A stretch of 64,000 bases of DNA from Candidatus Geothermincolia bacterium (GTDB taxonomy: Bacteria > Actinomycetota > Geothermincolia > Fen-727 > Anoxymicrobiaceae): positions 71,510 to 135,509 of the forward strand of contig JBBQKJ010000001.1 in the NCBI GenBank assembly GCA_038326775.1, given 5' to 3'. The position numbers and the translations under genes are program-made. Numbering within the stretch: position 1 is the stretch's first letter; the number at the start of each line of letters is the position of its first letter. The notes under the pieces were generated by a model, which was not told where the DNA came from, searched no databases, and was given only the letters and a program-made list of their open reading frames with translations. Shown piece after piece: positions 300 through 45,141 of the stretch.

Positions 300-1364
300 C
301 TAGTGGCAGCCCAGCATGCCGAAGCCGGGGACGGAACCGGGCAGGTTCCTGGTTTCGACGACACTGACCAGCCGCTCCGTGCGCGGGACTCCGAGCGTGT
401 TTATCACCTTCTCCATCGCGTCCACGTGCGGGCGGACGCGGTAGAAGACCTTGTTCTTGAAGTAGTACGCCGCCTTGAAGCGGCGGGTGATGCGGTGGAA
501 CTCCGCGGCCGCCTTCTCCCGGTCGCTGACGGCCATAGCCGCTATCTTGCCGGTCATGATGGCCCCCAGTATGCCGAACCACATGACCGGGTCCATGGCA
601 CCGCTCATGGTTCCGCACATTATGAGGTCTCCCCTGAAGAGGCCGGGGTTATCGGGGCCGGCAACCGGTACCGCGCCCGATACGTACTCCCAGTCGAGGT
701 GCTCCACGCCCTCGTTACGGCGCATGCAGTCCACGTACCGCTTCAGGGCCTCGCGGCTCACCTGGCCCGTCGAGTAGAAGAAGTCGAAGTAATAGTTGTT
801 GACCGAGGAGAGGTAGCCGAACTCGGTGATGGACGCCTCGAGGTAGATCCAGGCGTAGTTGCTGAAGCCGCACTCCCCGCGGGAGAGCCAGCCGTACCAT
901 CGGAGGTACGGGATATCCAGCATCTCGTACGCGGAGGGGCTTAGCCCGCAGGCGACTATCGTCCCGGGGTCTAGTTTGGGGATGTCCTCTTTCTTGAGCG
1001 GGGTATCAAAATGGAATGTCACGCCTAGGTCGAGGCACATCCCGTAGAGCATTGTGTCGATGCTGCCAGGGCGGCTGCCCCTCTCAACGGTGAAGAGCTT
1101 GCCGGCGGGCGCCTGCGCCTTCGTCTCGTTGTAGTACCAGGGGCAGGCCAGCAGGGGGTAGAAGACAGGCCTCAAGTCGATTCCGACGTACTCGCTGGTG
1201 CGCTCGAGGTCGATTGGCGTCGTGTGGGCCGAAGGGTTGTATATCCTGGACCCGCCGTAGCCGCTCTCCCGGTCGAGGACCTCCACCTCGTAGCCGTCGC
1301 GCGCCAGGTTGACGGCCGCGATCATGCCTGACATCCCCGCGCCGTATATGCTGACTTTCTTCAT
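300..1364 (-). CDS. FAD/NAD(P)-binding oxidoreductase, 354 aa, N-terminal Rossmann motif YGAGMSG. Paralog of 11869..12945, with a shared conserved C-terminal ...PGFG.L.CH. Divergent from the heliorhodopsin gene.
   Basis: GxGxxG dinucleotide-binding motif. Full-length alignment to the second copy in the window is visible by eye. Confidence 0.7.
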   Translation of the reverse strand: MKKVSIYGAGMSGMIAAVNLARDGYEVEVLDRESGYGGSRIYNPSAHTTPIDLERTSEYVGIDLRPVFYPLLACPWYYNETKAQAPAGKLFTVERGSRPGSIDTMLYGMCLDLGVTFHFDTPLKKEDIPKLDPGTIVACGLSPSAYEMLDIPYLRWYGWLSRGECGFSNYAWIYLEASITEFGYLSSVNNYYFDFFYSTGQVSREALKRYVDCMRRNEGVEHLDWEYVSGAVPVAGPDNPGLFRGDLIMCGTMSGAMDPVMWFGILGAIMTGKIAAMAVSDREKAAAEFHRITRRFKAAYYFKNKVFYRVRPHVDAMEKVINTLGVPRTERLVSVVETRNLPGSVPGFGMLGCH

Positions 1365-1472
1365 CTGCCTCTCCTCCCTTGCCGTCTGGCAGTTTTATTA
1401 TATCCCTGGCGGCCTGTGCAGGATTGGGAGCCCGTTCCCAGAAACAATTAACTCAGGACGAGGCGAAGGAGG

Positions 1473-2267
1473 TTGACCATGACGGACGCCACCGCTCCAG
1501 AGGGGATGGAACGACGGTTGAACCGACTCCGTGTCTTCAACTTTGTAGTGGGCATCGTGCTGCTGGCCCAGGGCCTGCTGATGCTTTTCATCAGCAACGA
1601 CTACGCGGCGCCCGTTACGACCCACTACCTCGGTGCAGGCACCCGCAGAGCTTTCCCGATCCCTGTCACCAGGCAGCCGGGCAGCCTGAGGCTGGGCCCG
1701 ATGGTAGCTCTTTTCCTACTCCTCAGCGGAATCGCCCTCCTGTTGATCGCGGCGCCGGGGATAAACAACTGGTACAGGAAGAACCTTCTGAAGGGGGCCA
1801 ACTACGGCAGGTGGATAGAGTATTCGATCACCGCGTCTCTGATGATAGTCGTTATCGCAATGCTTTCCGGAATATACGACTTGTCCACCCTCATCCTTCT
1901 CTTCTTCATGAACGCCATGATGATACTGTTCGGCTGGATGATGGAGCTGCACAACCAGACCACCGAAAAGACCGACTGGACAGCTTTCTATTTCGGATGC
2001 ATCGCCGGAGCTGTGCCGTGGGTGATAATCTGGCTGTACTTCATCTCCGCGGCCTCCGACCCGACCAGTAAGATGCCGGGTTTCGTGTACGGCATCATGG
2101 TCTCGCTGTTCATCTTCTTCAACATCTTCGCGGTAAACATGGTGCTGCAGTACAAGAAGGTAGGGCCGTGGAAGGACTACCTGTTCGGCGAGAAGGTTTA
2201 CATCATACTCAGCCTGGCGGCCAAGTCACTCCTGGCCTGGCAGGTGTTCTTCGGCACTCTTCGCTAA
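1473..2267 (+). CDS. Heliorhodopsin, a 7TM microbial rhodopsin of the heliorhodopsin family, 264 aa.
   Basis: Matches heliorhodopsin 48C12 blocks from memory: RW(I/V)EYS (Glu counterion position), MILFGW, FGCIAG.VPW, PGFVYGI, LQYK, YI.LSL.AKSLLAWQ.F.GTL (putative Schiff-base Lys). GAAGGAGG RBS 7 nt before the ATG. Confidence 0.8.
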   Translation: MTMTDATAPEGMERRLNRLRVFNFVVGIVLLAQGLLMLFISNDYAAPVTTHYLGAGTRRAFPIPVTRQPGSLRLGPMVALFLLLSGIALLLIAAPGINNWYRKNLLKGANYGRWIEYSITASLMIVVIAMLSGIYDLSTLILLFFMNAMMILFGWMMELHNQTTEKTDWTAFYFGCIAGAVPWVIIWLYFISAASDPTSKMPGFVYGIMVSLFIFFNIFAVNMVLQYKKVGPWKDYLFGEKVYIILSLAAKSLLAWQVFFGTLR

Positions 2268-2533
2268 CCCCAGGAACTCCTGTAGCCCTTGCCACCCGGT
2301 GGCCAGGAGAAGTCGACTGCGCCGCGCGTGCAGACGAACCAGCAGGCGGCGCACTCCATGCACTCTGCGAGGCTCTTGATGCGCGCCTTTTTATCGGCGA
2401 TCTCGTAGCAGCCGCCGAGGCATACCTTCACGCAGCGAGCGCACGCGTCGCACTTATCCTTGTCGATGGTGATGAAGTTGCCTGCGCCCTGGACCCATTC
2501 GACGCCCGGGAACTCTTCAGATGTTCTCGCCAT
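2264..2533 (-). CDS. fixX: FixX-like ferredoxin, 89 aa, with 4Fe-4S Cys motifs and a FixX-like C-terminus (DFSWPPGGKGY).
   Basis: CxxCxxC.../CxxC ferredoxin motifs. Resembles rhizobial FixX (C..CYE... EWSYPRGGFGV). Overlaps the stop of the FixC-like gene. Confidence 0.65.
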   Translation of the reverse strand: MARTSEEFPGVEWVQGAGNFITIDKDKCDACARCVKVCLGGCYEIADKKARIKSLAECMECAACWFVCTRGAVDFSWPPGGKGYRSSWG

Positions 2534-2534
2534 C

Positions 2535-4205
2535 TCATTTCCCTTTCGCGGGTGGGTTGTCGAACATGGCGGGGTCGGCGCGGCTTACGAAGCTCACCAG
2601 TTTCCTGCTCAACGGGTCGGTCAACGGCTCGAGAAATCTTATGACGGCCAGGTAGACGGGCTCCATCACCGGCAGAATGACCTTCATCACCGGGTTGGCG
2701 GCGGCCGAAGCCGGGGCCAGGAACGCGGCCGCTTTTCTGAGCGGGGACGCGAACCGGGCAAGGCCCCCGTCCAGGAGCTCGAGCGACTTTCCGAACGCCC
2801 TGTGTCCGAGGGTCTGCACCTTGCGCGGCCTGCGCCTGGAGGAAGCCTCGCCGTCGTAGCGCTCGTGGAGCCAGTTGTAGTAGTACCTTGGGAACATCCG
2901 TATCCAGGCGGCAACGATGGCGGGTTCGTCAGCGATCGAGTCCAGCACGGTCCTCAGCAGCGGGGTGCTCATGTGGGTGAAACCGCCCAGGCCCCATCCG
3001 TTGTGGACGAGCTTCCGGAGGAGCTTGATGTCGTGGTTCTGCTGGGCGTAGCGCAGGTCGTGGCGGTTGGTCCGGGAGATCGACCACTGGATTATGGGGT
3101 GCGCCTTTATCCGTTCGTCGTAACGTTTGAGGAAAGTCGCGGAGGTATCCCCGGCGCGTATCGCCTCGATCGTCACGTCCGCGGCGATGTCCGCGGAAAA
3201 CCAGGCCGCGGGCACCCCGTCGCAAAGCTCGGTGCTCTCGAGCCCGGCGGCGTCACCGATGAGCAGCATCCCGTCGGTGTGGTTGGGCATCTTGCGCGCT
3301 CGCTCGTCGAGCCCCACGAATATCTCGAAGCCGTCCCACATCCGGGCGCGCAAGCGTATGTGCGGGGCCACCTCCTCCCTCCACCAGGGCAGGCCTCCGG
3401 TGATGTTGCGATGGTACTCGTCGAAATCTTTGAGGCTCGGGACCTTTCCACTGCCGGTTTCAAGGCTCTGGTCCTGGATGAAGTGGAGGCTGTTTCTGTA
3501 GGGCCAGACCATGAGACCGTTTCCGAAGCCGAGGGGAGGCGCGACCCTCTGCTCGTCCCAACCCCAGCAAAAACGAAGGGTATGGCCGAATATCCTGTCC
3601 ACGTCCGCCTTGGACATCTCGTAGTCATAGCAGTCGGCGAGCGAGATGGCGTCCGGCGGGTACTTCTCGCGGATTCCCGCTTTTATCGCCAGCAGGCCCT
3701 GGCAGCCTTCCCCGTCGATGACCACCTTCGAGCTTATGTGCTCGCCGCCGTCGGTCAAGATGCCCGTGATGAAACCATCCTCCCGGATGACGTCCACCGC
3801 CACGGTGGAGGTCCGTAGCTCGACCCCCGATTCGACCGCCCTGTCCGCCTCCCACTCGCAGAACGGCTGGCAGTAGGCGTTGTAGCCGAAAGCGAGCACA
3901 GGGGAGAGGGGTTTGGGGATCTTAAGGGTATCATCGATCTCGATATCGCCCGTGGCGATATCTTTGACGATGTAGTTGATGATCCCGTCGGCCGGCCGCT
4001 CGATGGGCGGGTTCCCGTCACGGATGAACGCCGGACCGAAGAGGAAGCCGTAGAATGGGATCGTGAGGCCGGAGATGACCTTCTCGCCGACCCTTGCCCC
4101 CCTCTCGAGCATGAGCGTGCGCAGGCCGGCTTCGGCACATTTCTTAGCCGCCACCGGCCCGCCGAACCCGGCGCCGACAACTATGACATCGTATTCGTCG
4201 TCCAT
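2535..4205 (-). CDS. fixC: FixC-like FAD-dependent oxidoreductase (ETF-QO / geranylgeranyl reductase superfamily), 556 aa, with a C-terminal extension of about 120 aa.
   Basis: N-terminal DVIVVGAGFGGPVAAKK FAD motif. Gene order fixC-fixX. No fixAB was seen in the window. Confidence 0.65.
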   Translation of the reverse strand: MDDEYDVIVVGAGFGGPVAAKKCAEAGLRTLMLERGARVGEKVISGLTIPFYGFLFGPAFIRDGNPPIERPADGIINYIVKDIATGDIEIDDTLKIPKPLSPVLAFGYNAYCQPFCEWEADRAVESGVELRTSTVAVDVIREDGFITGILTDGGEHISSKVVIDGEGCQGLLAIKAGIREKYPPDAISLADCYDYEMSKADVDRIFGHTLRFCWGWDEQRVAPPLGFGNGLMVWPYRNSLHFIQDQSLETGSGKVPSLKDFDEYHRNITGGLPWWREEVAPHIRLRARMWDGFEIFVGLDERARKMPNHTDGMLLIGDAAGLESTELCDGVPAAWFSADIAADVTIEAIRAGDTSATFLKRYDERIKAHPIIQWSISRTNRHDLRYAQQNHDIKLLRKLVHNGWGLGGFTHMSTPLLRTVLDSIADEPAIVAAWIRMFPRYYYNWLHERYDGEASSRRRPRKVQTLGHRAFGKSLELLDGGLARFASPLRKAAAFLAPASAAANPVMKVILPVMEPVYLAVIRFLEPLTDPLSRKLVSFVSRADPAMFDNPPAKGK

Positions 4206-4215
4206 AGTGTCAGCC

Positions 4216-5793
4216 TCATTCCCGCGGGTCAGCCGGCTGTTCGTTGAACTGGACTCGCAAGTCTTTCTTCAGGATCTTTCCGGTTGGGGTGCGGGGCAGA
4301 GCGTCGGTGAACACCACCGACTTGGGCATCTTGAACTTCCCGATCTTGCCTTTCGTCCACTCGATTATCTCTTCCTCGGTAAGTGTCTCGCCTGGCGTGA
4401 CAACCACCACCGCCCTGACTGCCTCTCCCCACAACTCGTCCGGGTAGCCTATGACGCCGGCGTCCTGGATCTTGGGATGGTGCAACAGAAGGTCCTCGAT
4501 CTCTGCGGGATAAATGTTCTCGCCACCGGAGATTATCATGTCTTTCTTGCGGTCCATGATGTAAAGGAAACCGTCTGAGTCCATCCTGCCGATGTCCCCG
4601 GTGCAGAGCCAGCCGTCCTTGATGCTCTGGGCCGTGGCCTCGGGGTTGTTCCAGTAGCCTGTCATCACGAAATCGCCGCGCATGAGGACCTCGCCCAGCT
4701 CTTCGGGGCCGACCTCGTTGCCGTCATCATCAACGAGCTTGATCTCTGAGAAGAACTCCGGCAGCCCGCAGGAGCCGGCCTTCACCATGGAGTGCTCGCC
4801 GTCGATGACGGTACCCATGCCGCATGACTCGGTCAGGCCGTAGAGGTTGCGCACCTCTATTCCAGCTTCCGCGTACTCTTCGAGCACGGCGACGGGGAGG
4901 GGCGCGGCGTAAACAAATACCATCTTCACCGAGCTCCAGTCATACTTTTCGAAGTCGGGGACCATTTTGAGTATCTGCAGGAGGACGGGCACCGAGCCGA
5001 ACACGTTGACCTTCTCTTCCTCGATGAGCTCGAGAAAGCGTTTGGGGTCGAGGCTCCTGAGCATTATGCAGCGTAGGCCGGCCTGCACGCCCAGGGGAAC
5101 GTTGGCAAGGCCGCCTATGTGGAAGAGGGGTAATACGAGCATGGCGGTCTCACCCAGATGTCCCACCGTGGCGATGATGTTGGTCGAGCCCACGAAGTAG
5201 TTCCTGTGGGTGAGCATGGCGCCCTTGGGCCGCCCGGTGGTGCCCGAGGTGTATAGGATGGAGAGCACGTCATCATCGCCACCCGTTATCTCGGGCTCAT
5301 CTTCGGGCTCATCCTTTATCAGTTGGTTGTAGGAGAGCGCCCAATCAGGCGGATTGTCGCCGAGAGCCACGAGATGTTCGGCCGGTATGTCGCCGCGGAA
5401 TGAATCAACGACGTCCACGTACTCCGGGCCGAAGACGAACACATCAGCGCCGCTGTCGGAGAGGATGTACTGCATCTCCGGACCGGCAATACGGTAGTTG
5501 ATGGGCACCAGTATAGCCCCGATCTTCCCCAGGCCGAAGAACATGCTCAGGTACTCGGGCTCGTTCAGGGCGAGAAGGCCTACCCTTACGCCGCGCTCCA
5601 CACCGAGCTTTTTCATGGCGTGAGCGAGCTTGTTGGCCTCGGCGTTGGCCTCGGACCACGTGAGGCGGACGTCCTCGCAGACGATCGCCTCCTTTTCGGG
5701 GTCGAGCATTGCTCGCTGGGTAAGGTAACTGCCGATATTGATAGGCATGTCGACCAACTCCTTTCCGCCCTGAGGTACCGTCATGGGTAGCAC
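4216..5793 (-). CDS. AMP-dependent acyl-CoA synthetase/ligase, 525 aa.
   Basis: AMP-binding signature ILYTSGTTGRPKGAMLTHRN. Typical length. C-terminal ...PRTPTGKILK. Confidence 0.85.
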   Translation of the reverse strand: MLPMTVPQGGKELVDMPINIGSYLTQRAMLDPEKEAIVCEDVRLTWSEANAEANKLAHAMKKLGVERGVRVGLLALNEPEYLSMFFGLGKIGAILVPINYRIAGPEMQYILSDSGADVFVFGPEYVDVVDSFRGDIPAEHLVALGDNPPDWALSYNQLIKDEPEDEPEITGGDDDVLSILYTSGTTGRPKGAMLTHRNYFVGSTNIIATVGHLGETAMLVLPLFHIGGLANVPLGVQAGLRCIMLRSLDPKRFLELIEEEKVNVFGSVPVLLQILKMVPDFEKYDWSSVKMVFVYAAPLPVAVLEEYAEAGIEVRNLYGLTESCGMGTVIDGEHSMVKAGSCGLPEFFSEIKLVDDDGNEVGPEELGEVLMRGDFVMTGYWNNPEATAQSIKDGWLCTGDIGRMDSDGFLYIMDRKKDMIISGGENIYPAEIEDLLLHHPKIQDAGVIGYPDELWGEAVRAVVVVTPGETLTEEEIIEWTKGKIGKFKMPKSVVFTDALPRTPTGKILKKDLRVQFNEQPADPRE

Positions 5794-6826: not shown

Positions 6827-7204
6827 ATGGCGGCCATCGCAGGATGCGCGGGCACCAGGAAGGTGAAGGAGGGCTCGCGGTGGGTCCAGACGGAGGTGTA
6901 CTTCGGCAGGAACATACCCGCGGGAGGCGCCGTCTCCGAGGAGCAGTTCGCCCGGTTCCTGGACGAAGTCATAACGCCTGAGTTCCCGCAGGGCCTCACC
7001 GTGTTCGACGCCTACGGCCAGATGCGCCACGAGGACGGTATGATCGAGAAGCAGCAGACGAAGGCCGTCCTGCTGGTCCACGAGAAGACCGGGGCTAACA
7101 GCGATGCCGTCGAGAGCATCATCTCCGAATACCGCGCGCGGTTCGGCAAGCCCCAGGTGATGCACACGACGCAGCCGCTGGAAGTTGAGTTCTTCGGCGA
7201 CTGA
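6827..7204 (+). CDS. DUF3574-like small protein, probably a lipoprotein. Start uncertain: a hydrophobic in-frame leader (...LLAPVLILILLF) sits upstream without a canonical start codon.
   Basis: Resembles DUF3574 (VYFGRN.P.GG.VSE..F..FLDEV.TP.FP.GLTV.DA.GQ). LAGC-like lipobox context AIAGCAG. Confidence 0.45.
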   Translation: MAAIAGCAGTRKVKEGSRWVQTEVYFGRNIPAGGAVSEEQFARFLDEVITPEFPQGLTVFDAYGQMRHEDGMIEKQQTKAVLLVHEKTGANSDAVESIISEYRARFGKPQVMHTTQPLEVEFFGD

Positions 7205-11868: not shown

Positions 11869-12945
11869 ATGGCCAGTAAGGAAGTGCTTGTCTACGGAGC
11901 GGGGATGTCCGGGCTGGTGGCGGCTTACAACCTGGCGGCGGAGGGGCACTCGGTGCTGGTCCGCGACCAGGAGCCGGGGTACGGTGGTTCCAGCGTGTTC
12001 AACCCCTCCCTGCACACCACGCCTCTCGACGTGCCCGCCACCTCCGAGTATATCGGCATCGACGTCACGCCCGCTTTCCGGCCGGTGAGCGCGCTGACAA
12101 TCTACCTGCACGACCTCCCCGTGGAAGCCCCCGTTTTCATGGCGTACCACGTGGAGCGAAGCTCGCGCCCGGCGAGCCTCGACACCCTTCTCTACGAGAA
12201 GTGCCTCGGCGCCGACGTAAAGTTCGAGTTCGATTCGCCCCTGCGCTCCGACGACATACCGGGCCTTCCCCCGGGCACCATCATCGCCTGCGGGCTCAAC
12301 CAGCCAGCCTACGACTACCTGGGCATCCCGTACACCGACTGGTACGCGTGGATGGCCTCGGGCGAGATGGAGTCCGACGACTACGCCTGGATGTGGCTCG
12401 ACGAGTGCATCAACGAGTACGGCTATATCTCGTTCGCCAACGGCATCTACTACAACCTCCTTTTCGCCTACGGCCAGGAGGTGCCCCCGGAAGCCCTCGA
12501 GCGGTACCGGGGGTTCATGCGGCGGGTGCGCGACATGGACAACGAGGGCTGGGAGTACGTGCACGGGGTGGCGCCGGTCACCTCGCCAGATAACCCTCAG
12601 CTCTTCCGCGACGGGCTTATAATGTGCGGGACCATCTCCGGGGCCCTTGACCCGTTCATGGGCTTCGGTATCTCGGGGGCGCTGGTGTCCGGAAAGGTCG
12701 CCGCCATCGCGGTGACAGACAGGGAGAAAGCCGCCGAGGAGTTCGAGCGCTTCACCCGTAACTATGCGAAGGTGTTCCGGTTCAAGCACGATTTCTGGTA
12801 CGACCTGCGGGCGCGGGTGGACCTCCTGGAGGGCCTCGCCGGGGTCATCGGCCCTGAGCGCTCTGTGAGGATGCTTATCGAGGGCATCAAGCAGGGCAGG
12901 AAGAGCTCGGCTATTCCGGGCTTCGGCCCACTGGCCTGTCACTAG
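11869..12945 (+). CDS. FAD/NAD(P)-binding oxidoreductase, 358 aa, paralog of 300..1364.
   Basis: YGAGMSG Rossmann motif. Collinear similarity to the first copy. GGGAGGTG RBS. Confidence 0.7.
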   Translation: MASKEVLVYGAGMSGLVAAYNLAAEGHSVLVRDQEPGYGGSSVFNPSLHTTPLDVPATSEYIGIDVTPAFRPVSALTIYLHDLPVEAPVFMAYHVERSSRPASLDTLLYEKCLGADVKFEFDSPLRSDDIPGLPPGTIIACGLNQPAYDYLGIPYTDWYAWMASGEMESDDYAWMWLDECINEYGYISFANGIYYNLLFAYGQEVPPEALERYRGFMRRVRDMDNEGWEYVHGVAPVTSPDNPQLFRDGLIMCGTISGALDPFMGFGISGALVSGKVAAIAVTDREKAAEEFERFTRNYAKVFRFKHDFWYDLRARVDLLEGLAGVIGPERSVRMLIEGIKQGRKSSAIPGFGPLACH

Positions 12946-17257: not shown

Positions 17258-18028
17258 TCATTTTGACAGCGCCGACAGGATGAACGACAGAAGGAAACCA
17301 GCCGTAGCGGCCAACGGGGTGGCAAAGGGCGTTATCCGCCCCTCGTAGTCGAACGCCTCGGGTATCATCGTGGAGGAGACCATCGCCAGTATAGCTCCGC
17401 CGGCGAGCGCCGTGACGAAGGCGTTGGCGTCCACGCCCATGTGCCCCAGCACGAGGTAACCGAACAGCGAGCTGAGCGAGCTCATGATCGCAATGGAAGC
17501 CCACATGGCGATGGTGGAAGCTTTCTTCCATCCCGCGCCCGCCATGCTGATAGACCCGGATACTCCTTCGGGCAGGTTGCTGATGAACACCGCGGCCAGC
17601 ATCACCCCGCTCACGCCGTTGCCGCCGAGCAAGGTGATGCCTATAGCGGCGGATTCCGGGATGCCGTCCAGAAGGGCTCCGATGAAGATGGCGAGCCCCG
17701 AGCCATCCTTGCGCTCGGGCTTGTAGGCCTCGTACCTCTTGTGAAGCGTCAACCTTCTGAGGTGGCCCCCCTGGCTGTTAACCGCCAGGTCACCGATTAT
17801 AAAGAGCGCCGCCCCGACAATGAAACCGCTCACGGAGGAGTCGAAACCGCCTTTGATGTAAGCTTTCTCCACCAGCTCGAAGGAAAGGGTGGCTATCAGC
17901 ACCCCGGCGCCGAACGCGGTGACCACAGCAATGGTCCTTCTCTTTACCTTGACGTAGAGGCCTATGAGAGCCCCCAGCACCAGGGTGCTCCCGCCCAGCA
18001 GTCCGAAAAGCGCCGCCCTCAGTGCCAT
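17258..18028 (-). CDS. ZIP-family (ZupT-like) divalent metal transporter, 256 aa. The 619-aa ORF in the track is an upstream over-extension.
   Basis: MALRAALFGLLGG... with multiple TM helices and ZIP-like GIPE..A and HMGVD-type segments. GGGGAG RBS directly upstream of the ATG at 18028. Confidence 0.75.
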   Translation of the reverse strand: MALRAALFGLLGGSTLVLGALIGLYVKVKRRTIAVVTAFGAGVLIATLSFELVEKAYIKGGFDSSVSGFIVGAALFIIGDLAVNSQGGHLRRLTLHKRYEAYKPERKDGSGLAIFIGALLDGIPESAAIGITLLGGNGVSGVMLAAVFISNLPEGVSGSISMAGAGWKKASTIAMWASIAIMSSLSSLFGYLVLGHMGVDANAFVTALAGGAILAMVSSTMIPEAFDYEGRITPFATPLAATAGFLLSFILSALSK

Positions 18029-18076
18029 TTCTCCCCTTGTTGACTGTACTAGACCGGCTGCTGATATACTAAGCGC

Positions 18077-18997
18077 ATGAGTGGAAGAGTGATAGAGCTT
18101 GCCGAACTGAGCAGTCCGGAGATAGACGCCCTCGACCCCGCGAAGACGCTGTTCGTGATGGCGATGAGCCCCCTCGAGGTCCACGGCCCGCATCTCCCGC
18201 TCGGCACCGACGTCCGGGTGGCGGAGGAGCTCAAGGGCCGCGCGATAGCCAGGGTCGCCGAGCGCCACCCGGAGTTTGATTTCGTGGTCTTTCCGTCGTG
18301 CTACGTGGGGAGCGACACAATTCCGCGCTCGGTCGAGGTAGACAGCCGGGCCATCTACTACATCCTCAAGGCCAGCGGTGAGTTCCTCGCCGACCGGGGG
18401 TTTTACTACCTGCTGGTGCTTGACAACCACGGGGGCCCGCGGCACCAGATAGCGACCGCCAAGGCTGTCGTAAAGCTCTACAGCAAGCGCGGGTTCCACA
18501 TCATCGCCCCGTTCTTGTCGTTCTTCCGCAGGATGGTAGACCTTGACCCTGAGCTCGTGGAGCGCATCGGCGCGGGCCGGGGCGCCTGCGGCGACGTCGA
18601 GGACTCTCATGCCGGCCTCAATGAAACTTCCCTCATGCTCTGCGCGTACCCGGACTCCGTGCGCTCGGAGTACAAGGGTCTGCAACGTACCGCCATCAAC
18701 CCCCGCCGGTGGCCCGGCCTCCTGCTGGGCCTGCTCGGGCGCGGGCTGCGAGCGCTGGGTCTCGAGGAGATTGGTGGCGATATTCGATACGCCGGGGTCC
18801 TGCTCTCGTGGGTGACCATGAAGAACCCTCCCACGTACATCGGCGAGCCGCGCGCCGCGACACCGGAAGCCGGAGACCGCATGTTCGATGCCCACAGCGA
18901 CGAGGCGGCGGAGTTGGTGGAAGCGGCATTGCGAGGCGATCCCCCGTACAGCACCCCCATAGGCTGGTCGCTCCGCTTCATCGAGCCCAGCCGCTAG
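18077..18997 (+). CDS. Creatininase-family amidohydrolase, 306 aa.
   Basis: Signature ...MSPLEVHGPHLPLGTD... and the downstream HGG/His-rich pattern of the creatininase fold. Confidence 0.75.
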   Translation: MSGRVIELAELSSPEIDALDPAKTLFVMAMSPLEVHGPHLPLGTDVRVAEELKGRAIARVAERHPEFDFVVFPSCYVGSDTIPRSVEVDSRAIYYILKASGEFLADRGFYYLLVLDNHGGPRHQIATAKAVVKLYSKRGFHIIAPFLSFFRRMVDLDPELVERIGAGRGACGDVEDSHAGLNETSLMLCAYPDSVRSEYKGLQRTAINPRRWPGLLLGLLGRGLRALGLEEIGGDIRYAGVLLSWVTMKNPPTYIGEPRAATPEAGDRMFDAHSDEAAELVEAALRGDPPYSTPIGWSLRFIEPSR

Positions 18998-19006
18998 CCC
19001 GACATT

Positions 19007-19143
19007 CATGCTGGGGTCAGACACCTTGACATGAATTTTAGTCGGCTTTTCATGTGTCTCAAGGTGTCTGACCCCGGTGATGCTTTGCGAAAATGCAAGA
19101 AAGTGACCTGACCCCAATGTTACATATTGATTGAAATAGCGGG
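19007..19143. repeat. Palindromic intergenic repeat element, copy A (about 137 bp): arm GGGGTCAGACACCTTGACATGAATTT and its inverted copy, then a conserved tail AGTGACCTGACCCCAATGTTACAT...ATAGCG.
   Basis: About 80 percent identical over about 135 bp to 48246..48383. Nested inverted repeats read from the sequence. Lies between the creatininase gene and tRNA-His. Confidence 0.6.
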
Positions 19144-19927: not shown

Positions 19928-20089
19928 CAAACCTCATGAACGCACCCATGTTCGTCTCGGTGGAATGGGGCCTCCTGCTGCTGACCCCTCCTTAACGGTA
20001 ATTGAACTTCGCTCTGTGAACACGTATATAATCTGTCCCGGCGGATGGAAGCCCAGTTTGGCGGCTGTCCGAAAAGGCACACGAGGAGC

Positions 20090-21538
20090 ATGCTTGTGAG
20101 TGGCGCACCGGTATTGCCTCAAATGGAAAAGTCGATGCCACCGGGGCTTTTCAGCCGCATTCTCTCGTTTGCTCCCGCCCTCAAGGGCCTGCCGGCAACG
20201 TTGAGCAACGAGGAGGTGGAAGGCCTTCTCTTCTTCCTCCCCGGGGACACCGCGGACGCCTTGCGGTACCTGCTGAAGCCCGGTATCAGGGACGCGAGCC
20301 TCCTTTTCATAAACACCCTCCTTGGCTTCTTCGAGGAGGTCGCGGCCGCGAAGCGCGAGGGCAAAAAGGTGATCCTGACCGCGTTCAACTTCCCACCCGA
20401 GCTTATTCACGCGTTCAACAACGCGGCTGTGGTGACGAGCGAGGTCATCACCACGTTCGGGGTCATGACTCTTCAAGGCCAGGGCGAAAGATACTGGGAC
20501 TACGCCATCGGGCTGGGTTTGCCCGACCACCTGTGCTCGGCCAGCACAATAGAGGTGGGCTCAATGATCGCAGGGGGAGAGTACCCTCCCGACGCCATCA
20601 TCATCTCCGCGGCGGGAAGCTGCGACGCGAACGCCAAGGTCCACCAGTTCCTGGCCTATTACCTGGGCATCCCCGAGTTTGTTATAGACAAGCAGCCCGA
20701 CGACTCGGACAGGGGCCTCGAGGCTTTCAAGCGGGGCTACATGCGACTGGTAGCCGAGCTCGAGGAGTTTATCGGCGAGGAGCTCGACCTCGAGAACCTG
20801 CGCCGGGTCGCCGAGAACACCAACCGCTGCACCGAGCTCTACTACGAGCTCTGGGAGCTGCGAAAGCACACGCCCTGCCCGGTCCCCGGCATCTTCTCGC
20901 CTTTCACCTACGGCAACCGCTTCACCATGTGGGGCAGGGCCGAGGGCGTCGCGCTCCTCGATAAGTGCGTCGAGACAGCGAAGAGCAACCTCGAGGAAGG
21001 CCGGTTCCCGGTCCCGGATGAGAAGGCGCGCGTCTACTGGACTTACGTCAGCCATTACTTCGATGTCCTCAACTTCTTCGGGTGGATGGAGGAGCAGGGG
21101 ATCTCTTACATGGGCGACCTGGTCCTGCTGTGCTTCCCGCGCCCCATCTCGCTCGAGTCGAAGGAGTCCATCCTCAACGGCATGGCCGAGACGGCCTGGG
21201 ACATGTTCATGACCCGCCAGATGGGCTCGGAGATAATGTCGGCCCGGTGGGTGGAAGACCTCCTCTACATCATCAGGGAGCTCAAGGTCGACTGCTGCGT
21301 CTACTGCGGGCACCACTCGTGCAAACAGACATGGAGCGTCTTCTCACTGGTCAGCAACGAGGTGATGAAACGGGCGGGTGTGCCCACCCTGTGCCTCTAC
21401 GGCGATTCCTGGATAAAGAGGGTGACGCCGGTGACGATGCTCCAGGAAGATATCAAGAGGTTCATGGATAACGTGGTCGTCAAGGCAGGCAGGGGTCGCT
21501 GGTCGCGGCCGATCGCCGCGAGCCGGGGAGGTAAGTGA
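20090..21538 (+). CDS. 2-hydroxyacyl-CoA dehydratase / benzoyl-CoA reductase (HAD/BCR) family subunit, HgdAB/BcrB-like. Paralog of 42145..43641 and 43655..45058.
   Basis: Collinear similarity to the two downstream paralogs (LFDR...P..MS.EE..G..., K.ILT.FNFPPE.IHAF.N, GL.PDHLCSA..IE.GSM, ...CG.HSCKQTWSV...). GGAGG RBS before the ATG at 20090; the track ORF starts earlier, at 20045. Confidence 0.7.
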   Translation: MLVSGAPVLPQMEKSMPPGLFSRILSFAPALKGLPATLSNEEVEGLLFFLPGDTADALRYLLKPGIRDASLLFINTLLGFFEEVAAAKREGKKVILTAFNFPPELIHAFNNAAVVTSEVITTFGVMTLQGQGERYWDYAIGLGLPDHLCSASTIEVGSMIAGGEYPPDAIIISAAGSCDANAKVHQFLAYYLGIPEFVIDKQPDDSDRGLEAFKRGYMRLVAELEEFIGEELDLENLRRVAENTNRCTELYYELWELRKHTPCPVPGIFSPFTYGNRFTMWGRAEGVALLDKCVETAKSNLEEGRFPVPDEKARVYWTYVSHYFDVLNFFGWMEEQGISYMGDLVLLCFPRPISLESKESILNGMAETAWDMFMTRQMGSEIMSARWVEDLLYIIRELKVDCCVYCGHHSCKQTWSVFSLVSNEVMKRAGVPTLCLYGDSWIKRVTPVTMLQEDIKRFMDNVVVKAGRGRWSRPIAASRGGK

Positions 21539-24846: not shown

Positions 24847-24936
24847 CGTTGGTCTCCAATTCGTTATTGTTGCGACTCTATTCTAATCGTTGACCCGGCC
24901 ACGCGGCATCCCGGCGTGAGAAGCACGGCAACTCTA

Positions 24937-24973
24937 TTGACAAAGAACATACATATTGTATATTGTCGACAAT
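24937..24973 (+). promoter_or_regulatory. Putative sigma70-like promoter of the GRE operon (TTGACA at 24937-24942, 16-nt spacer, TATATT at 24959-24964) overlapped by two palindromic operator candidates: ATACATATTGTAT (24949-24961) and ATTGTCGACAAT (24962-24973).
   Basis: Hexamers and palindromes read from the sequence. Located in the divergent GntR/GRE intergenic region about 50 nt upstream of the GRE1 start. Confidence 0.4.
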
Positions 24974-25014
24974 TGAGGGGGAAGCTGGCACCTGGTGCAA
25001 AGGGGATGGTCTGT

Positions 25015-27681
25015 ATGAGCACCGCTACCCAAACTCTTAATTCCGAGAGGGTTTACCGCGTCATCCACATCAAGGTGGCAGAGGAGCCCAACGTGCACGT
25101 GCCCATCAAGCCCACGCTCGATTCCAGGGTAAAGATCTGCCTCGAAAGAGCGGAGCTGGTCACGGAATCCTACAGGCTCACCGAAGGCGAACCGTGGATA
25201 CTGCGCCGCGCCAAAGCCCTGGATCACCTGCTGCGCAATATGACCATTTACATCCTCGAGGGCGAAGAGATCGTGGGTAATTATTCCAGCACACCGGACA
25301 GTTTGCCCACCCATCCCGAATACTCCTACCGTTGGCTGGAGGACGCGCTTGAGACCGATTTCACGGACGCCCTGGATGAGGAAGGCAGGAGAAGACTGCG
25401 GCAAATCAATGAGTATTGGGCCGGACACAGCGTGGAGAGCAGGTTCCTCGAGACGGTGCCGGATGACTTGAAGCCATATACGGAATGGACGGGGGCCGTG
25501 GGAGGGACCTGGCTGTGGCCCCTGGGATGCATGGTGCTGAATTACGAAGGGGCCTTTGAAGAAGGGCTGAAGGGGTTGCTGGACGAGGTGCGGGAGCACA
25601 GCTCCAGGCTCGAGCCGGATGACCGGGATTATCAGGAGAAGCACGAGTTCTATATGGCTGCGGAGATCTGCGCTGAGGCGTTAATGGCCTTCGCCAGCCG
25701 TTTTGCCGCTCTGGCTGAGGAAAAGGCGGTCGGGGCTGAGGGCGAGCAGAAGGAGAGGTACGAGAGGATCGCCCACATCTGTTCGCGCATCCCGGAAAAC
25801 CCTCCCGAGAGTTTCCATGAAGCACTGCAGGCCTTCTGGTTCTACCACCTCGTGACCACGCAGATCGACTGGAACAGCGTGGGTCTGGGGCAGCGTTTCG
25901 ACCAGCTCTTCTGGCCATATTACGAGAAGGACAAAATGGAGAAACGCATCACCTACGAACGGGCGGTGGAGCTCTTTGAACACCTTTGGATAAAACTGGA
26001 TGACCTGGGGCAGATCAATCCCCAGATCTCCTCAATGCTCCAGGTAGGTGGCACCAAGTTTCAGAGCGCAACCCTTGGCGGGGTTGACAGGTACGGCAAC
26101 GACGCTACTAACGAGCTTTCATTCGCCATGATCGACGCTACAATGAATATCCGGACGCTGCAGCCCAGCCTCAGCGTTCGCTATCACGATAATATTGATC
26201 CGAGGATTATCGACAGGGCGGTGGACTGCATCGCCACGGGCATAGGCATGCCGGCTATATTCAATGACAACGCGGTCATCCCCTGGTCCCTGTACAAAGC
26301 GCTGGAACACCTCTATCCCGAATCGGGAAAGCTGTTCGGAGTGGGCTGCCTTCCGATACTTCAGAAGACCCATCATGCAGCGAAAAAGGCCATATCGCAC
26401 CTCCCGAAGTCATGGGAGGAAGGCCTGGAGAGCTACTTCCATAACTGGCCCTATAAGTTGTGTACCGCCGGCGGCAGGGCAGGGGACGCCTTACGCTATC
26501 TTACGAAACGTGCCCGGATATTCGATGCCGAGGAGATCATGTACCTTGCCCGAAACTGGTCAAACACGGCCTGTGTAGGGCCGGGATTTACGGGAATGGC
26601 CTCCCTCCAGGGCACGCTGGCAACCCTCATCACCGCCGCCATCCTCAATTACGCAAAGTGCCTGGAGTATGTCCTCTACCAGGGTGTGGAGCCGACCACC
26701 GGCGAGCAGTTGGGGGCAAGAACCCCAGACCCGCGCACTTTCAAGGCCTACGATGAGTTTCTGGATGCCTTCCTCTCTCAGATCAAGTACGCGCTGGAGC
26801 AAAACGCGAAAGTGTACGAGATAAGCGAGAAGCTCTACCAGGAGATGATGCCCCGTCCCCTCGCCTCCATGCTGGTGGGAAGGAAGACATCCATAGAGCG
26901 GGGCAAGGACGCGACCCGCAAGGGGGACGCCGCCTACAGCGAAGTCTTCCTGGCGGGCGGCGTGAACGCCGCGGACTCTCTGGCGGTCATAAAGAAACTC
27001 GTCTGCGAGGAGAAGTCGGTCAGCATCGACGAATTGATCAGAGCCTGTCAGTCAGACTGGGCGGGATGCGAGGACCTGCGCGGCAAGTGCCTGGCCGTTC
27101 CCAAGTTCGGCAACGATGACGACTCCGTGGACCTGGTCCTGGAGGATATGTACCGTAAGTCTGTAAAGGTCTTCAATGGAGTGAAGGACCATTTCGGCAA
27201 GCCCTTCGTACCGGAGGCGACCCTGGCCGGAGGGTACTTCGCCACCGGGCTTTCCACGGGCGCCACTCCTGACGGCCGCCGGGCCGCCGAGACCCTTTCG
27301 GACGGGCAGCTCTCGCCCATGCACGGTCGGGACTTGAGCGGTCCGACCGCCGTTCTCAAGTCATGCTCCAAGGTGAACCCCACGCGCTGCGGCAACCAGC
27401 TGGTCAACCAGAAGTTCCTGCCATCCGCACTCAAAGCCGCGAACAAGAAGCTGTTCGCCGATTACCTCAAGACCTGGTCCGAGTTCGGCAACTGGCATAT
27501 CCAGTTCAACTGTATCGACGCGGACACCCTGAGGGAAGCACGCGAGTATCCGGAAAGGCACAAGAACCTCATCGTGCGCGTTGCAGGGTACAGCGCTTTC
27601 TTCACCGAGCTTAATCCCGAGATACAAGCGGATATCATCAGGCGTTCCGAGCAGGACCTGGGTTCCTCGAGGTGTTGTTGA
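25015..27681 (+). CDS. Glycyl radical enzyme paralog 1 (GRE1), 888 aa, unknown substrate specificity.
   Basis: C-terminal glycyl-radical motif IVRVAGYSAFF plus TPDGR...SDGQLSPMHGRD...GPTAV. Putative thiyl Cys loop NTACVGPG about 338 residues before the Gly. Start chosen at MSTATQTLNSE by alignment with GRE3; RBS AAGGGGATGG. Confidence 0.9.
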   Translation: MSTATQTLNSERVYRVIHIKVAEEPNVHVPIKPTLDSRVKICLERAELVTESYRLTEGEPWILRRAKALDHLLRNMTIYILEGEEIVGNYSSTPDSLPTHPEYSYRWLEDALETDFTDALDEEGRRRLRQINEYWAGHSVESRFLETVPDDLKPYTEWTGAVGGTWLWPLGCMVLNYEGAFEEGLKGLLDEVREHSSRLEPDDRDYQEKHEFYMAAEICAEALMAFASRFAALAEEKAVGAEGEQKERYERIAHICSRIPENPPESFHEALQAFWFYHLVTTQIDWNSVGLGQRFDQLFWPYYEKDKMEKRITYERAVELFEHLWIKLDDLGQINPQISSMLQVGGTKFQSATLGGVDRYGNDATNELSFAMIDATMNIRTLQPSLSVRYHDNIDPRIIDRAVDCIATGIGMPAIFNDNAVIPWSLYKALEHLYPESGKLFGVGCLPILQKTHHAAKKAISHLPKSWEEGLESYFHNWPYKLCTAGGRAGDALRYLTKRARIFDAEEIMYLARNWSNTACVGPGFTGMASLQGTLATLITAAILNYAKCLEYVLYQGVEPTTGEQLGARTPDPRTFKAYDEFLDAFLSQIKYALEQNAKVYEISEKLYQEMMPRPLASMLVGRKTSIERGKDATRKGDAAYSEVFLAGGVNAADSLAVIKKLVCEEKSVSIDELIRACQSDWAGCEDLRGKCLAVPKFGNDDDSVDLVLEDMYRKSVKVFNGVKDHFGKPFVPEATLAGGYFATGLSTGATPDGRRAAETLSDGQLSPMHGRDLSGPTAVLKSCSKVNPTRCGNQLVNQKFLPSALKAANKKLFADYLKTWSEFGNWHIQFNCIDADTLREAREYPERHKNLIVRVAGYSAFFTELNPEIQADIIRRSEQDLGSSRCC

Positions 27682-27695
27682 GAGGGGTGGGTAGA

Positions 27696-30359
27696 ATGAG
27701 CGAGACGGCGAGAAGATTGAATGAAGAGAGGCTGATCAAGGCGGTCCAGATCACCGACGCGGAGAGCCCGTCGGTGAGCATGCCGGTCAAAGTGAAGCTC
27801 GATCCCAACGTTAAGATCTGCCTGGAGAGGGCGGAGCTGGTGACGGAGTCTTACCGGCGCACCGAGGGTGAGCCTTGGATAATCCGGCGCGCCAGGGCCC
27901 TGGACCACCAACTCCGGAACATGACCATTTATATACTCGAGGGCGAACAGATAGTGGGCAACTATGCCAGCACGCCGGACAGCCTGCCCACCTACCCGGA
28001 GATCTCCTGCCGCTGGTTGGACGAAGAGCTCGACGACGCCTACACACACGCGCTTGACGAGGAAGGAAAAAGAAGGCTGCGGGAGATACACCAGTACTGG
28101 TACGATGTGAACGTCGAGGGGACTATCCTCAGGGACCTGCCGGAGGAGCTGGAAGATTTCATCAGTTCCAGCAAGACCACGGCCATGTTCACCATGTTCT
28201 GGCCCGCGGGCGCCTTCCCCCTGGACCTTAAGGACTGGGTCTTTCCGCGTGGCTTGAACGGTATCCTGGAAGAGGTGGGCGAGCGGCGCGCCGCGTTGTC
28301 GAAAGACGACGTGGATTTCCAGGAGAAAGAAGATTTCTATAACGCTGCCGAGATAAGCACCAGGGCCGTGATTGCCTTCGCCCGTCGCTACTCCGCGCTG
28401 GCCTGGGAGAAGGCGGCATCGGCCGGCGGGAAGGCCAGGGAGGATTACCTGAAGGTGGCCGAGGTCTGCGCGCGCGTGCCAGAGCATCCCCCCCGGACCT
28501 TCCATGAAGCCCTGCAAACTTTCTTCTTCTGCCACCTGGTAACCGCCCAGATAGACTGGTACGGCCTGGGCCTTGGACAACGCTTCGACCAGCTCTTCTG
28601 GCCCTGCTACGCACGCGAAAAGGAAGAAGGAAGCATCACCTACGACCGCGCCGTGGAGCTGCTGGAGTTTCTCTGGATAAAACTGGACGACCTGGGCCAG
28701 ATCAATCCCGTCAGCACTTCCATCTACCAGGCGGGAGGGACCAAGTTCCAGAACGTATCCGTGGGCGGCGTGGACGAGAACGGCGAGGACGCGAGCAATG
28801 AGCTCTCCCTGGCGGTCCTGGACGCCACCATCAATATCCGTACTCCCCAGCCCGGCGTCTGTGTGTTATACCACGACAGGATCGACCCCAGGTTGCTCGA
28901 CAAGGCCATAGATTGCATCGCCTCGGGGATGGGGCAGCCCGCACTTTTCAATAACGATGTGTGTGTAAAGTGGCACCTTAACCTGGCGTTGGATATCCTC
29001 TACCCGGATTCGGGGGGATTCATCGGCGTCCCCTACCTTGGTCTGGTCCAGAAGACGGACAACCTCGTGAGGAAGGTTGTCTCTCACCTCCCGGCATCCC
29101 TGCGTAAAAAGATAGAGGAAAGATACGACGAATGGCCTTACGCAGTATATACGGGAGGCGGAAAGCCGGGTGACTTGTTGCGGGCGGCCTTGAAGAAGGT
29201 TCACCTCTGGGACGCTCAGAAGGGGTTGGCCCTGGCCCGGGGGTGGGCTCCCACCTCCTGCGTGGGAGGGGGATTGCAGGGCAAGGTGACCATACAGGGT
29301 ACCCTCACCTCAATACTCATCTTCACCGTATTGGATTTCCTGAAGTGCTTCGAGTACGTCATGTACCAGGGGGTGGAGCCTGAGACCGGCGAGCTGGTGG
29401 CGGTCCCCACCCCGGACCCCGGTTGCTTCCAGACCTACGACGAGTTCCTCGACGCCTACCTGGAGCAGGTCGAGTTCCAGGTGGACAGGGCCAACCGGGC
29501 TTACCAGATCGCCGAGATGACTTACGAGGAGCACATGCCCCGTCCTTTCGCCTCGGCCTGCACCGAGACCTGCGTCGCGAGGGGCAGGGACGGTATGCGG
29601 CGGGGAGACGCCTCCATCAGCGAGATCTTCAGTATGGGCAGCGTGAACGCCGCCGAATCCCTGGCCGCGGTGAAAAAACTGGTCTTCGATGATGGAGCGG
29701 TGACCATGGAGGAGCTGCTGAAGGCTTGCGACTCCAACTGGGAAGGCTATGAGGACGTGCACCGCAAATGCCTGGAGGTCCCCAAGTTCGGCAACGACGA
29801 CGACTACGTCGATCATATCCTGGACGACCTCTATCGCAAGGCCCAGGCCCTGGTCTACAGCCACAAGGACCATTGGGGCAACGGGCTGCACCTGGAGTCG
29901 TCCCTGGCGGCCGGTTATTACGTGGGCGGGCTCACCTGCTCTGCCACCCCGGACGGAAGGGTAAAGGGGGAGACCGTCTCCGACGGACAGCTCTCGCCAA
30001 TGCACGGCAGAGACATAAACGGCCCCACCGCGGTGCTCAAGTCCTGCTCGAAGGTGGACCCCCTCAAGAGCTGGAACCAGCTCTGCAATCAGAAGATAAA
30101 CCCCACCTTCCTCAAGGGAAAGAACAAGAGGCTTTTCGCTGATTACCTGCGTACCTGGCTCGGGTTCGGCAACTGGCATATCCAGTTTAACTGCCAGGAC
30201 GCGGAGAGCCTCAGGGATGCCATGGTTTATCCGGAGAGGCACCGGGATCTGATCGTGCGCGTAGCCGGATACAGCGCCTTCTTCATAGACCTGGCGCCCG
30301 GCTTGCAGCAGGATATCATCAGGAGAACGGAGCAGAGCCTGAAGGATACGGTTCACTGA
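27696..30359 (+). CDS. Glycyl radical enzyme paralog 2 (GRE2), 887 aa, the most divergent of the three.
   Basis: RVAGYSAFF Gly motif, TPDGR block, Cys loop TSCVGGG. Start at MSETARRL with RBS GAGGGGTGGG. Confidence 0.9.
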   Translation: MSETARRLNEERLIKAVQITDAESPSVSMPVKVKLDPNVKICLERAELVTESYRRTEGEPWIIRRARALDHQLRNMTIYILEGEQIVGNYASTPDSLPTYPEISCRWLDEELDDAYTHALDEEGKRRLREIHQYWYDVNVEGTILRDLPEELEDFISSSKTTAMFTMFWPAGAFPLDLKDWVFPRGLNGILEEVGERRAALSKDDVDFQEKEDFYNAAEISTRAVIAFARRYSALAWEKAASAGGKAREDYLKVAEVCARVPEHPPRTFHEALQTFFFCHLVTAQIDWYGLGLGQRFDQLFWPCYAREKEEGSITYDRAVELLEFLWIKLDDLGQINPVSTSIYQAGGTKFQNVSVGGVDENGEDASNELSLAVLDATINIRTPQPGVCVLYHDRIDPRLLDKAIDCIASGMGQPALFNNDVCVKWHLNLALDILYPDSGGFIGVPYLGLVQKTDNLVRKVVSHLPASLRKKIEERYDEWPYAVYTGGGKPGDLLRAALKKVHLWDAQKGLALARGWAPTSCVGGGLQGKVTIQGTLTSILIFTVLDFLKCFEYVMYQGVEPETGELVAVPTPDPGCFQTYDEFLDAYLEQVEFQVDRANRAYQIAEMTYEEHMPRPFASACTETCVARGRDGMRRGDASISEIFSMGSVNAAESLAAVKKLVFDDGAVTMEELLKACDSNWEGYEDVHRKCLEVPKFGNDDDYVDHILDDLYRKAQALVYSHKDHWGNGLHLESSLAAGYYVGGLTCSATPDGRVKGETVSDGQLSPMHGRDINGPTAVLKSCSKVDPLKSWNQLCNQKINPTFLKGKNKRLFADYLRTWLGFGNWHIQFNCQDAESLRDAMVYPERHRDLIVRVAGYSAFFIDLAPGLQQDIIRRTEQSLKDTVH

Positions 30360-30434
30360 GGCGCCAGCATTCGGGTATTTTGGTTGAGGGCAGGACCAGA
30401 ATCGGCCTGCTGATTTGTCAAGGGGGTAGTTTCG

Positions 30435-33110: not shown

Positions 33111-33126
33111 AGGAGCTTTCCGACAC

Positions 33127-34155: not shown

Positions 34156-34165
34156 TTCTGCCGAA

Positions 34166-43641: not shown

Positions 43642-43654
43642 GAGAGGAGAAGCA

Positions 43655-45058: not shown

Positions 45059-45059
45059 A

Positions 45060-45090: not shown

Positions 45091-45141
45091 CTACCGCGAC
45101 AGCGACCGAAGCGCTATGACCAAAAAAGAAAGGGAGATTGA

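Follow-up and report, generated by a model that had tools for sequence, protein, structure and literature searches.

A histidine-less heliorhodopsin in a genome segment of an anaerobic Geothermincolia bacterium: a probable photosensor of an already known type

Background

Heliorhodopsins (HeRs, type-3 rhodopsins) form a family whose function is largely open, and each well-placed member adds context. One such gene lies in a stretch of 64,000 nucleotides, here called the window, from a Candidatus Geothermincolia bacterium (Actinomycetota; assembly GCA_038326775.1, contig JBBQKJ010000001.1, positions 71,510 to 135,509 of the forward strand). The same window carries genes of O2-sensitive radical enzymology, and the locus thus raises the question of what a light-sensing retinal protein does in these surroundings. 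The first-pass annotation, made from the sequence alone, regarded this as an unusual ecological combination, considered a photic but anoxic niche or a light-independent role, and expected the gene neighbourhood to be informative. The current work shows that the observation was correct but ordinary. The heliorhodopsin, its lysine and glutamate, its two leucines and its pairing with an FAD gene that has a paralogue were all recognized properly, but neither the unusual combination nor the informative neighbourhood was borne out.

Identification of the heliorhodopsin gene

The ORF map of the window contains a forward-strand open reading frame at 1473..2267, previously translated as 264 aa. A Shine-Dalgarno sequence, AAGGAGG, can be read directly from the sequence at 1465..1471 on the same strand. 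Only 1 nt separates this motif from the TTG at 1473, and 7 nt separate it from the ATG at 1479. Translation from ATG 1479 gives a 262-aa protein that equals a database protein over its whole length (P0001; 100% identity and coverage), and the gene calls on L001 and L002, two independent assemblies in which the neighbours are the same, use this start too. Because of this spacing, the match to P0001 and these gene calls, the coding sequence is most likely 1479..2267 on the forward strand (262 aa and a TAA stop), and TTG 1473 is probably an unused in-frame alternative start upstream. Between this gene and the divergent FAD gene lie 114 nt (1365..1478), which presumably hold both promoters. A scan of 1200-2700 for promoter and terminator consensus sequences yielded nothing above shuffled expectation, and a weak hairpin at 1379-1392 was the sole feature that it gave in the intergenic region.

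The gene is a real, intact and full-length heliorhodopsin, as the annotation had stated. The Pfam model Heliorhodopsin (PF18761) matched over its whole profile (1-242 of 242) with E=4.6e-97 and 324.5 bits, against a cut-off of 26.7, and the NCBIfam equivalog NF038020, "heliorhodopsin HeR", scored 328.4 bits against a cut-off of 100. A sequence search of the PDB returned TaHeR (6is6, E=1.5e-72) and 48C12 (6su3, E=1.6e-61). An AlphaFold2 model built with 28 homologues (pLDDT 83.3, pTM 0.78) has seven helices and a long beta-hairpin in the loop between TM1 and TM2 (the AB loop; strands 43-52 and 61-71). Foldseek aligned this model to 6is6 with TM-scores of 0.88/0.92; type-1 rhodopsins reached only about 0.55-0.64.

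The best solved relative is TaHeR of Thermoplasmatales archaeon SG8-52-1 (PDB 6IS6), with about 50% identity. The two proteins have in common the seven-helix fold, the long AB beta-hairpin, the Lys/Glu/Ser/Arg network and Met at position 213; TaHeR differs in its archaeal origin, its His/His pair and its Ser at 111. The founding member of the family, HeR 48C12 (PDB 6SU3), has the same fold at 43% identity (TM 0.82), and carries Gln instead of Met at position 213. The inverted topology of the family, with a cytoplasmic N-terminus, would follow from homology to TaHeR. The count of Lys and Arg residues, 10 on the predicted cytoplasmic side and 6 outside, of which 4 are in the AB hairpin, is consistent with this orientation, though not decisive. 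HeR hosts are expected to be monoderm prokaryotes. The relatives that carry a phylum-level name are Actinomycetota MAGs, and the window encodes an L,D-transpeptidase with a peptidoglycan-binding domain (Pfam), observations that may bear on the type of cell envelope.

Key residues of the Schiff-base cavity

Residue positions were assigned from HMMER alignments and from an alignment of the protein and 120 homologues made with MAFFT. The lysine of SLAAKSLLAWQ, proposed earlier as the retinal-binding residue, is indeed the Schiff-base lysine: K249 aligns with K241 of 48C12 in TM7, and the SxxxK motif S245...K249 (2211..2225, forward strand) aligns with S237...K241 of 48C12 and with TaHeR. The glutamate of RWIEYS likewise proved to be the counterion, since R111-W112-I-E114 aligns with R104-W105-V-E107 of 48C12, where E107 is the single Glu counterion in TM3. 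The stretch E114-Y-S-I-T118 (1818..1832, forward strand) is of the "ET" type, with Thr at the position of S111. In 48C12 numbering, N16, Q26, S76, Y92, N101, R104, W105, E107, Y108, E149, E230, S237, K241 and W246 are all conserved in the window protein.

The conserved histidine pair of the Schiff-base cavity is absent. As the annotation had suspected, H23 (TM1) and H80 (TM2) of 48C12 are both replaced by Leu, at L28 (codon 1560..1562) and L87 (codon 1737..1739), both on the forward strand. Differences from 48C12 in the Schiff-base cavity and its network are limited to H23L, H80L and S111T (T118).

A Leu/Leu heliorhodopsin is already known

The Leu-for-His variant has already been described and characterized and is not new. 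HULAa30F3, a natural HeR from a fosmid of Lake Hula, a peat lake, has Leu in place of both TM1/TM2 histidines, which are numbered H25/H81 in that work (Chazan et al., bioRxiv 10.1101/2021.02.16.431466). When expressed in E. coli, it forms a pigment with all-trans retinal (lambda-max 562 nm), and its photocycle has a large, long-lived O and low M, resembling the TaHeR H23F/H82F mutant (Chazan et al.). Thus, the H23/H80 pair is not defining for HeRs, since HULAa30F3 works without it. HULAa30F3, by its published description, and the window protein have the same Leu/Leu pair. They differ in that HULAa30F3 is assigned to Dehalococcoidia (Chloroflexi) and has a DegV-family gene as neighbour, and the named Leu/Leu relatives of the window protein are Actinomycetota MAGs.

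Residues of the cavity are highly conserved according to Kovalev et al. 2020 and a 2025 preprint, and one Asn/Asn case is mentioned in the main text of the former. His80/His23 of 48C12 has been proposed as the terminal proton-accepting group, and the same study reported that 48C12 H80F loses the O state and that TaHeR H23F/H82F still forms M (Tsujimura et al. 2022). Because 48C12 H80F was reported not to form O, the photochemistry of His-less proteins would appear to be context-dependent.

Distribution and evolution of the Leu/Leu type

The 120 nearest homologue clusters at 90% identity were aligned together with two His/His references. Among these 122 sequences, 70 are Leu/Leu, 47 are His/His (45 without the references), 4 are Phe/His and one is a fragment; neither Leu/His nor His/Leu occurs in the 120 clusters. 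Several further positions co-vary with the pair. S111T accompanies Leu/Leu in 60 of 70 clusters and is found in only 1 of 45 His/His clusters; for Q26E the counts are 36 of 70 and 0 of 45. Further changes that co-vary with Leu/Leu are A77G and substitutions at positions 19 and 22. The window protein has S111T and keeps Q26. The surveyed positions of the retinal pocket and cavity, the lysine and the counterion are essentially invariant across the 70 Leu/Leu clusters.

The Leu/Leu relatives that are named at the phylum level are all Actinomycetota MAGs, and one is labelled just "bacterium". Only five of the 80 nearest species-representative genomes with a HeR are Leu/Leu, counting L046, whose HeR lacks part of its N-terminus and shows only the Leu at position 80 and T111. 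Actinomycetota MAGs account for four of them (fen_727, fen_680, SURF_21 and co7_176), and the remaining one is a 4.7-kb contig placed in an "Eisenbacteria" bin. In a wider sample of 88 full-length top hits among representatives at 50% identity, His occupies position 80 in 78 and Leu in 2, and position 23 varies more, with His in 63, Tyr in 10, Phe in 5 and Leu in 4.

In neighbour-joining trees, Leu/Leu required at least two changes in 200 of 200 bootstrap replicates, with a mode of five. For a short protein and this one tree method, such a result hints that the pair may have been switched or exchanged repeatedly. Monophyly of the Leu/Leu type is contradicted on these distance trees, in a suggestive rather than conclusive way.

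Pairwise Nei-Gojobori comparison with seven Leu/Leu relatives gave dN/dS values of 0.06-0.25, with synonymous sites near saturation. The GC3 of the HeR gene is 0.81, and that of neighbouring genes is 0.75-0.89. Low dN/dS, together with a GC3 that matches the neighbours, indicates that the HeR is a constrained and functional resident gene, neither a relic nor a recent import.

Heliorhodopsins and anaerobic metabolism

The radical enzymology of the window is real. Pfam and NCBIfam scans identified three glycyl-radical enzymes in tandem (24916-33110) together with an activase, and four HGD-D paralogues accompanied by an activator of the BcrAD type. Acyl-CoA dehydrogenases and a gene of the HpaB family, similar to 4-hydroxybutyryl-CoA dehydratase, were identified as well. 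The presence of a HeR among them is not unusual, however, because HeRs are common in anaerobic lineages. The 80 nearest HeR-bearing species genomes include Anaerolineae, Dehalococcoidia, Caldisericota, Coprothermobacterota, Methanomassiliicoccales, Theionarchaea, Hadarchaeota and deep-subsurface Actinomycetota. HeRs have been reported in strictly anaerobic Firmicutes (Bulzu et al. 2021), and in the records AE000666 and AE009950 (Chazan et al., Dataset S2). Other Leu/Leu loci also lie beside anaerobe-type genes, among them a BcrAD ATPase, a rubrerythrin, a B12-radical-SAM enzyme and a molybdopterin oxidoreductase accompanied by a B12-binding protein. We take AE000666 to be Methanothermobacter thermautotrophicus and AE009950 to be Pyrococcus furiosus.

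Proposed function

The window HeR, a member of the His-less type already known, probably binds retinal and serves as a photosensor without ion transport, and the radical-enzyme genes are then probably other genes of the same anaerobe, functionally untied to it. Several parts of this reading were computed here: family, fold, conservation of the retinal and Schiff-base residues, purifying selection, the monocistronic layout and the want of a conserved partner. Retinal binding, red-shifted absorption, low M and long O are taken over from HULAa30F3, and the sensory role and the retinal source are inferred.

All-trans retinal would be bound to K249 as a protonated Schiff base, with E114 as the counterion, and would be isomerised by light. 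It is proposed that little deprotonated M accumulates because the two cavity histidines are missing, and that a long-lived O-like state forms. By analogy to HULAa30F3, the absorption of the window HeR is expected to be red-shifted, and its photocycle to show little M and a long-lived O as the signalling state. The O-like state may then act by altering the contact of the HeR with a putative partner; ions would not be transported.

Pfam and NCBIfam scans of the ORFs in the 64-kb window found no carotenoid or retinal genes. A carotenoid role considered for the neighbouring FAD protein is not supported, since the protein gave only sub-threshold matches of its N-terminal Rossmann region to the GG-reductase and CrtI families and one marginal PDB match. 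To our knowledge, the known retinal-forming cleavage enzymes need O2, which would make the supply of chromophore in a strict anaerobe a difficulty for this reading. The gene blh is rare near HeRs and in HeR-only genomes, and another route to retinal has been suggested (Chazan et al.). Retinal in this organism may be scavenged or made via some such other route.

An alternative is a light-independent role, in which an opsin without retinal, or with another ligand, would serve as a membrane scaffold or regulator in dark, anoxic habitats, and the double histidine loss would mark a relaxed photocycle. Judging by their names, Leu/Leu relatives come from the deep peat of fens (fen_727, fen_680) and from a site in the deep subsurface (SURF_21), places in which the presence of light is doubtful; the lack of retinal and carotenoid genes in the window and the rarity of blh in HeR-only genomes agree with such a role, as does the importance ascribed to His23/His80 for proton transfer and the M-to-O transition (Tsujimura et al. 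2022). However, near-invariance of the lysine, counterion and pocket in the 70 Leu/Leu clusters under strong purifying selection would be hard to explain without a chromophore, and a natural Leu/Leu HeR, HULAa30F3, does bind retinal and photocycles. Moreover, His/His HeRs occur in the same dark or anoxic lineages, so that Leu/Leu is no marker of darkness. A light-independent role is therefore considered unlikely, and the retinal-binding photosensor is retained as the better account.

Gene neighbourhood

Upstream of the HeR, a 354-aa FAD/NAD Rossmann protein (FAD354; Pfam NAD_binding_8) is encoded on the reverse strand at 300..1364; it is weakly geranylgeranyl-reductase-like, with an NCBIfam GG-red-SF score far below the cut-off. 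The divergent pairing of HeR with this FAD gene, and the second copy of the latter at 11869, were both confirmed: the paralogue (11869..12945, forward strand; Pfam) has 49.6% identity by tblastn. Downstream, a convergent operon on the reverse strand (2264..5793; Pfam, NCBIfam and PDB matches) encodes an acyl-CoA ligase (4216-5793), a FixC/GG-reductase-like flavoprotein (FAD556, 2535-4205; PDB 3oz2 and FixC 7koe) and a FixX-like ferredoxin (Fer4, 2264-2533), and its stop overlaps the HeR stop by 4 nt. Flanked by a divergent gene on its upstream side and a convergent one downstream, the HeR is predicted to be monocistronic, without a co-transcribed partner.

Synteny was examined by tblastn of eleven window proteins against the HeR loci of relatives and by gene tables for nine relatives. 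The whole block FAD354/HeR/Fer4/FAD556/CoA-ligase/Fer4 recurs in one genome, L089 (GCA_020723485.1), with identities of 83% for FAD354, 66% for the ferredoxin, 82% for the flavoprotein, 84% for the ligase and 75% for the next Fe-S protein. Collinearity with L089 continues past both ends of the block, with 77-80% of nucleotides identical, and an acetyl-CoA hydrolase-like gene upstream has 88% identity. L089 is thus a close relative, and the shared block points to common descent. Flanking genes are also better conserved (81-84%) than the HeR itself (69%) by tblastn.

In L004, whose HeR has 72% identity, the convergent operon is kept; the FAD gene was not detected beside the HeR there, and the matches to its family, at a distance of about 9 kb, resemble the second copy most. 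(The 460-aa read-through of the L004 HeR ORF is an artefact of ambiguous bases, translated as XX, at the stop.) The arrangement of HeR, ferredoxin, flavoprotein and CoA-ligase persists in three genomes. FAD354 is absent beside the HeR in L083, L085 and L087, relatives at 88%, 82% and 74% HeR identity. The neighbours are a nitroreductase and Polyketide_cyc2 at 88%, SHOCT and TMEM175 at 82%, and an HpaB-family gene upstream with a pyrimidine-dimer glycosylase downstream at 74%. The neighbourhood differs again in three further Leu/Leu groups.

FAD354 and HeR were considered as a functional unit and rejected as such, the sole full match being a collinear close relative; the pairing is concluded to reflect inherited gene order, as far as these gene comparisons tell. 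The expectation that the neighbourhood would be informative is thus not supported here, with neighbours that vary among relatives and FAD354 kept only in L089.

The same evidence bears on the possibility that FAD354, or the system of FixC/FixX-like flavoprotein and CoA ligase, is bound by the HeR and regulated by light, perhaps so that reactions sensitive to O2 or light are switched off near the surface. Precedents exist, in that characterized HeRs regulate an adjacently encoded glutamine synthetase (AbHeR), photolyase (TfHeR) and ABC transporter (OcHeR with OmrDE), and the block that is identical in L089 and partly kept in L004 would fit. In those cases, however, the partner is in the same operon, whereas the window HeR stands alone between divergent and convergent genes. 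The synteny with L089 is explained by descent, relatives as close as 88% have other neighbours, and sequence conservation is higher in the flanking genes than in the HeR. Kim et al. 2024 give ten recurrent classes of HeR operon partner (GS, NAD+ synthetase, photolyase, MerR, TerC, ABC transporter, SDR, alpha/beta hydrolase, DUF2177 and DUF2238), and none of these ten is co-transcribed with the window HeR. Coupling to the adjacent genes is thus rather improbable. The principle described for AbHeR, TfHeR and OcHeR, a non-transporting photosensor acting via protein-protein contact, likely applies by analogy to the window HeR as well.

A bolder combination was also weighed and is judged quite improbable as a whole. 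The His-less HeR would be a light switch, with light as a proxy for surface and oxygen, for the adjacent flavin/Fe-S acyl-CoA module, either the divergent GG-reductase-like flavoprotein or the FixC/FixX-like flavoprotein with the CoA ligase, a module that keeps its place beside the HeR in three genomes. Separately, His-to-Leu, with S111T and in half of the cases Q26E, would have had several origins and shifted absorption to the red as an adaptation to low-oxygen habitats rich in peat or humic matter.

A light-driven proton transporter like viral V2HeR3 is very improbable, for although some HeRs move protons according to an eLife 2022 paper, and removal of the histidines alters the internal proton path, TaHeR and 48C12, which do not transport, are the nearest proteins in both sequence and fold, the hydrophobic extracellular half has no added carboxylate on alignment, and the window protein shows the pattern of non-viral HeRs at the proposed lateral fenestration/carotenoid site (F170, F214, C174, A218 and G177). 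In 48C12 numbering, this pattern consists of aromatic residues at 162 and 206, small residues at 166 and 210, and Gly at 169. The proton-transporting viral subfamily 2 has polar or acidic residues in the extracellular half, such as Glu at 202, and a changed retinal pocket with His at 162/166, in contrast to L210, F170 and C174 at these positions in the window protein. The non-transporting, retinal-binding photosensor thus remains the preferred reading.

Implications

By itself, the window HeR adds little. Standard annotation finds it, HeRs in strict anaerobes are documented, and a Leu/Leu protein has already been measured. The finding does sharpen the question of where strict anaerobes obtain retinal. 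Moreover, the Leu/Leu group is sizeable and strongly constrained, belongs to uncultured anaerobic Actinomycetota and carries co-varying changes in the cavity. The group thus forms a natural set on which the proposed role of His80/His23 as terminal proton acceptor can be tested.

Gene clusters surrounding the heliorhodopsin locus

Three tandem glycyl-radical enzyme paralogues of 921, 895 and 891 aa lie within positions 24916-34762 of the window, and after them come one radical-SAM activase and a DUF4125 protein. Regulatory genes stand on both sides of this cluster, GntR upstream and TetR downstream. Four genes of the HGD-D (2-hydroxyacyl-CoA dehydratase) type and one BcrAD/BadFG activator ATPase are located at 20045-21538 and 41003-45960, and several acyl-CoA dehydrogenase genes, all atypical, are interspersed among them. 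Directly after this dehydratase cluster, at 46786-48245, is a short protein of 238 aa whose match covers just a portion of the profile for CdhC (acetyl-CoA synthase beta), and a gene for a CooC/ParA-type P-loop ATPase comes after it. Between tRNA-Arg (16081) and tRNA-His (19225), an ORF of 619 aa (17258-19117, minus strand) has no Pfam match; its C-terminal half weakly resembles the zinc transporter ZupT.

Neighbours of heliorhodopsin in related loci

Several database loci carry heliorhodopsins that, like that of the window (L28 and L87), have Leu at both positions corresponding to H23 and H80 of 48C12. In one relative (L087/L088), whose Leu/Leu heliorhodopsin is 74% identical to that of the window, the gene directly upstream is an orthologue (81%) of the HpaB-family gene of the window, and a Pyr_excise gene (6841-7155), belonging to the pyrimidine-dimer DNA glycosylase family that functions in UV-damage repair, follows directly downstream on the same strand after a 46-nt gap. 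Two unrelated contexts, L083 (7392-7724) and L091 (5806-6057), have a gene for a small DUF5808 protein downstream of the Leu/Leu heliorhodopsin and in the same orientation, and in L091 it begins only 10 nt past the heliorhodopsin stop; no DUF5808 was found among the annotated genes of the window. In a third Leu/Leu group (L092, 3930-5478), there is a 17-nt overlap between heliorhodopsin and the upstream gene, which encodes a DUF1295/steroid-reductase-like membrane protein; a B12-binding radical-SAM gene follows downstream of heliorhodopsin. In L093 (2683-4043), heliorhodopsin comes after DsbB, with rubrerythrin nearby.

The closest species-representative match, L003 (JBDRNT010000080.1; 89% heliorhodopsin identity), is a contig of 4.7 kb labeled Candidatus Eisenbacteria, on which none of the neighbour genes of the window is present. 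The GC content of this contig is 0.52, against a GC3 of 0.79 for its heliorhodopsin. It is probably a mis-binned actinobacterial contig.

Divergence of heliorhodopsin between collinear genomes

In the window, heliorhodopsin and the FixX-like ferredoxin gene converge with a 4-nt overlap of their stop codons (2264-2267), an arrangement too tight to fit a terminator in between; the collinear close relative L089 (GCA_020723485.1) has 116 nt separating the two genes. Between these genomes heliorhodopsin (window 1479-2267, L089 5001-5795) shares 69% amino acid identity, clearly less than the flanking genes (75-88%), with the exception of the 89-aa ferredoxin (66%). Moreover, the first ~200 nt of heliorhodopsin have no alignment at the DNA level, although the flanks do align. 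Together, the low identity and the unaligned start between aligned flanks point to an N-terminal part of heliorhodopsin that has evolved faster or undergone allele replacement.
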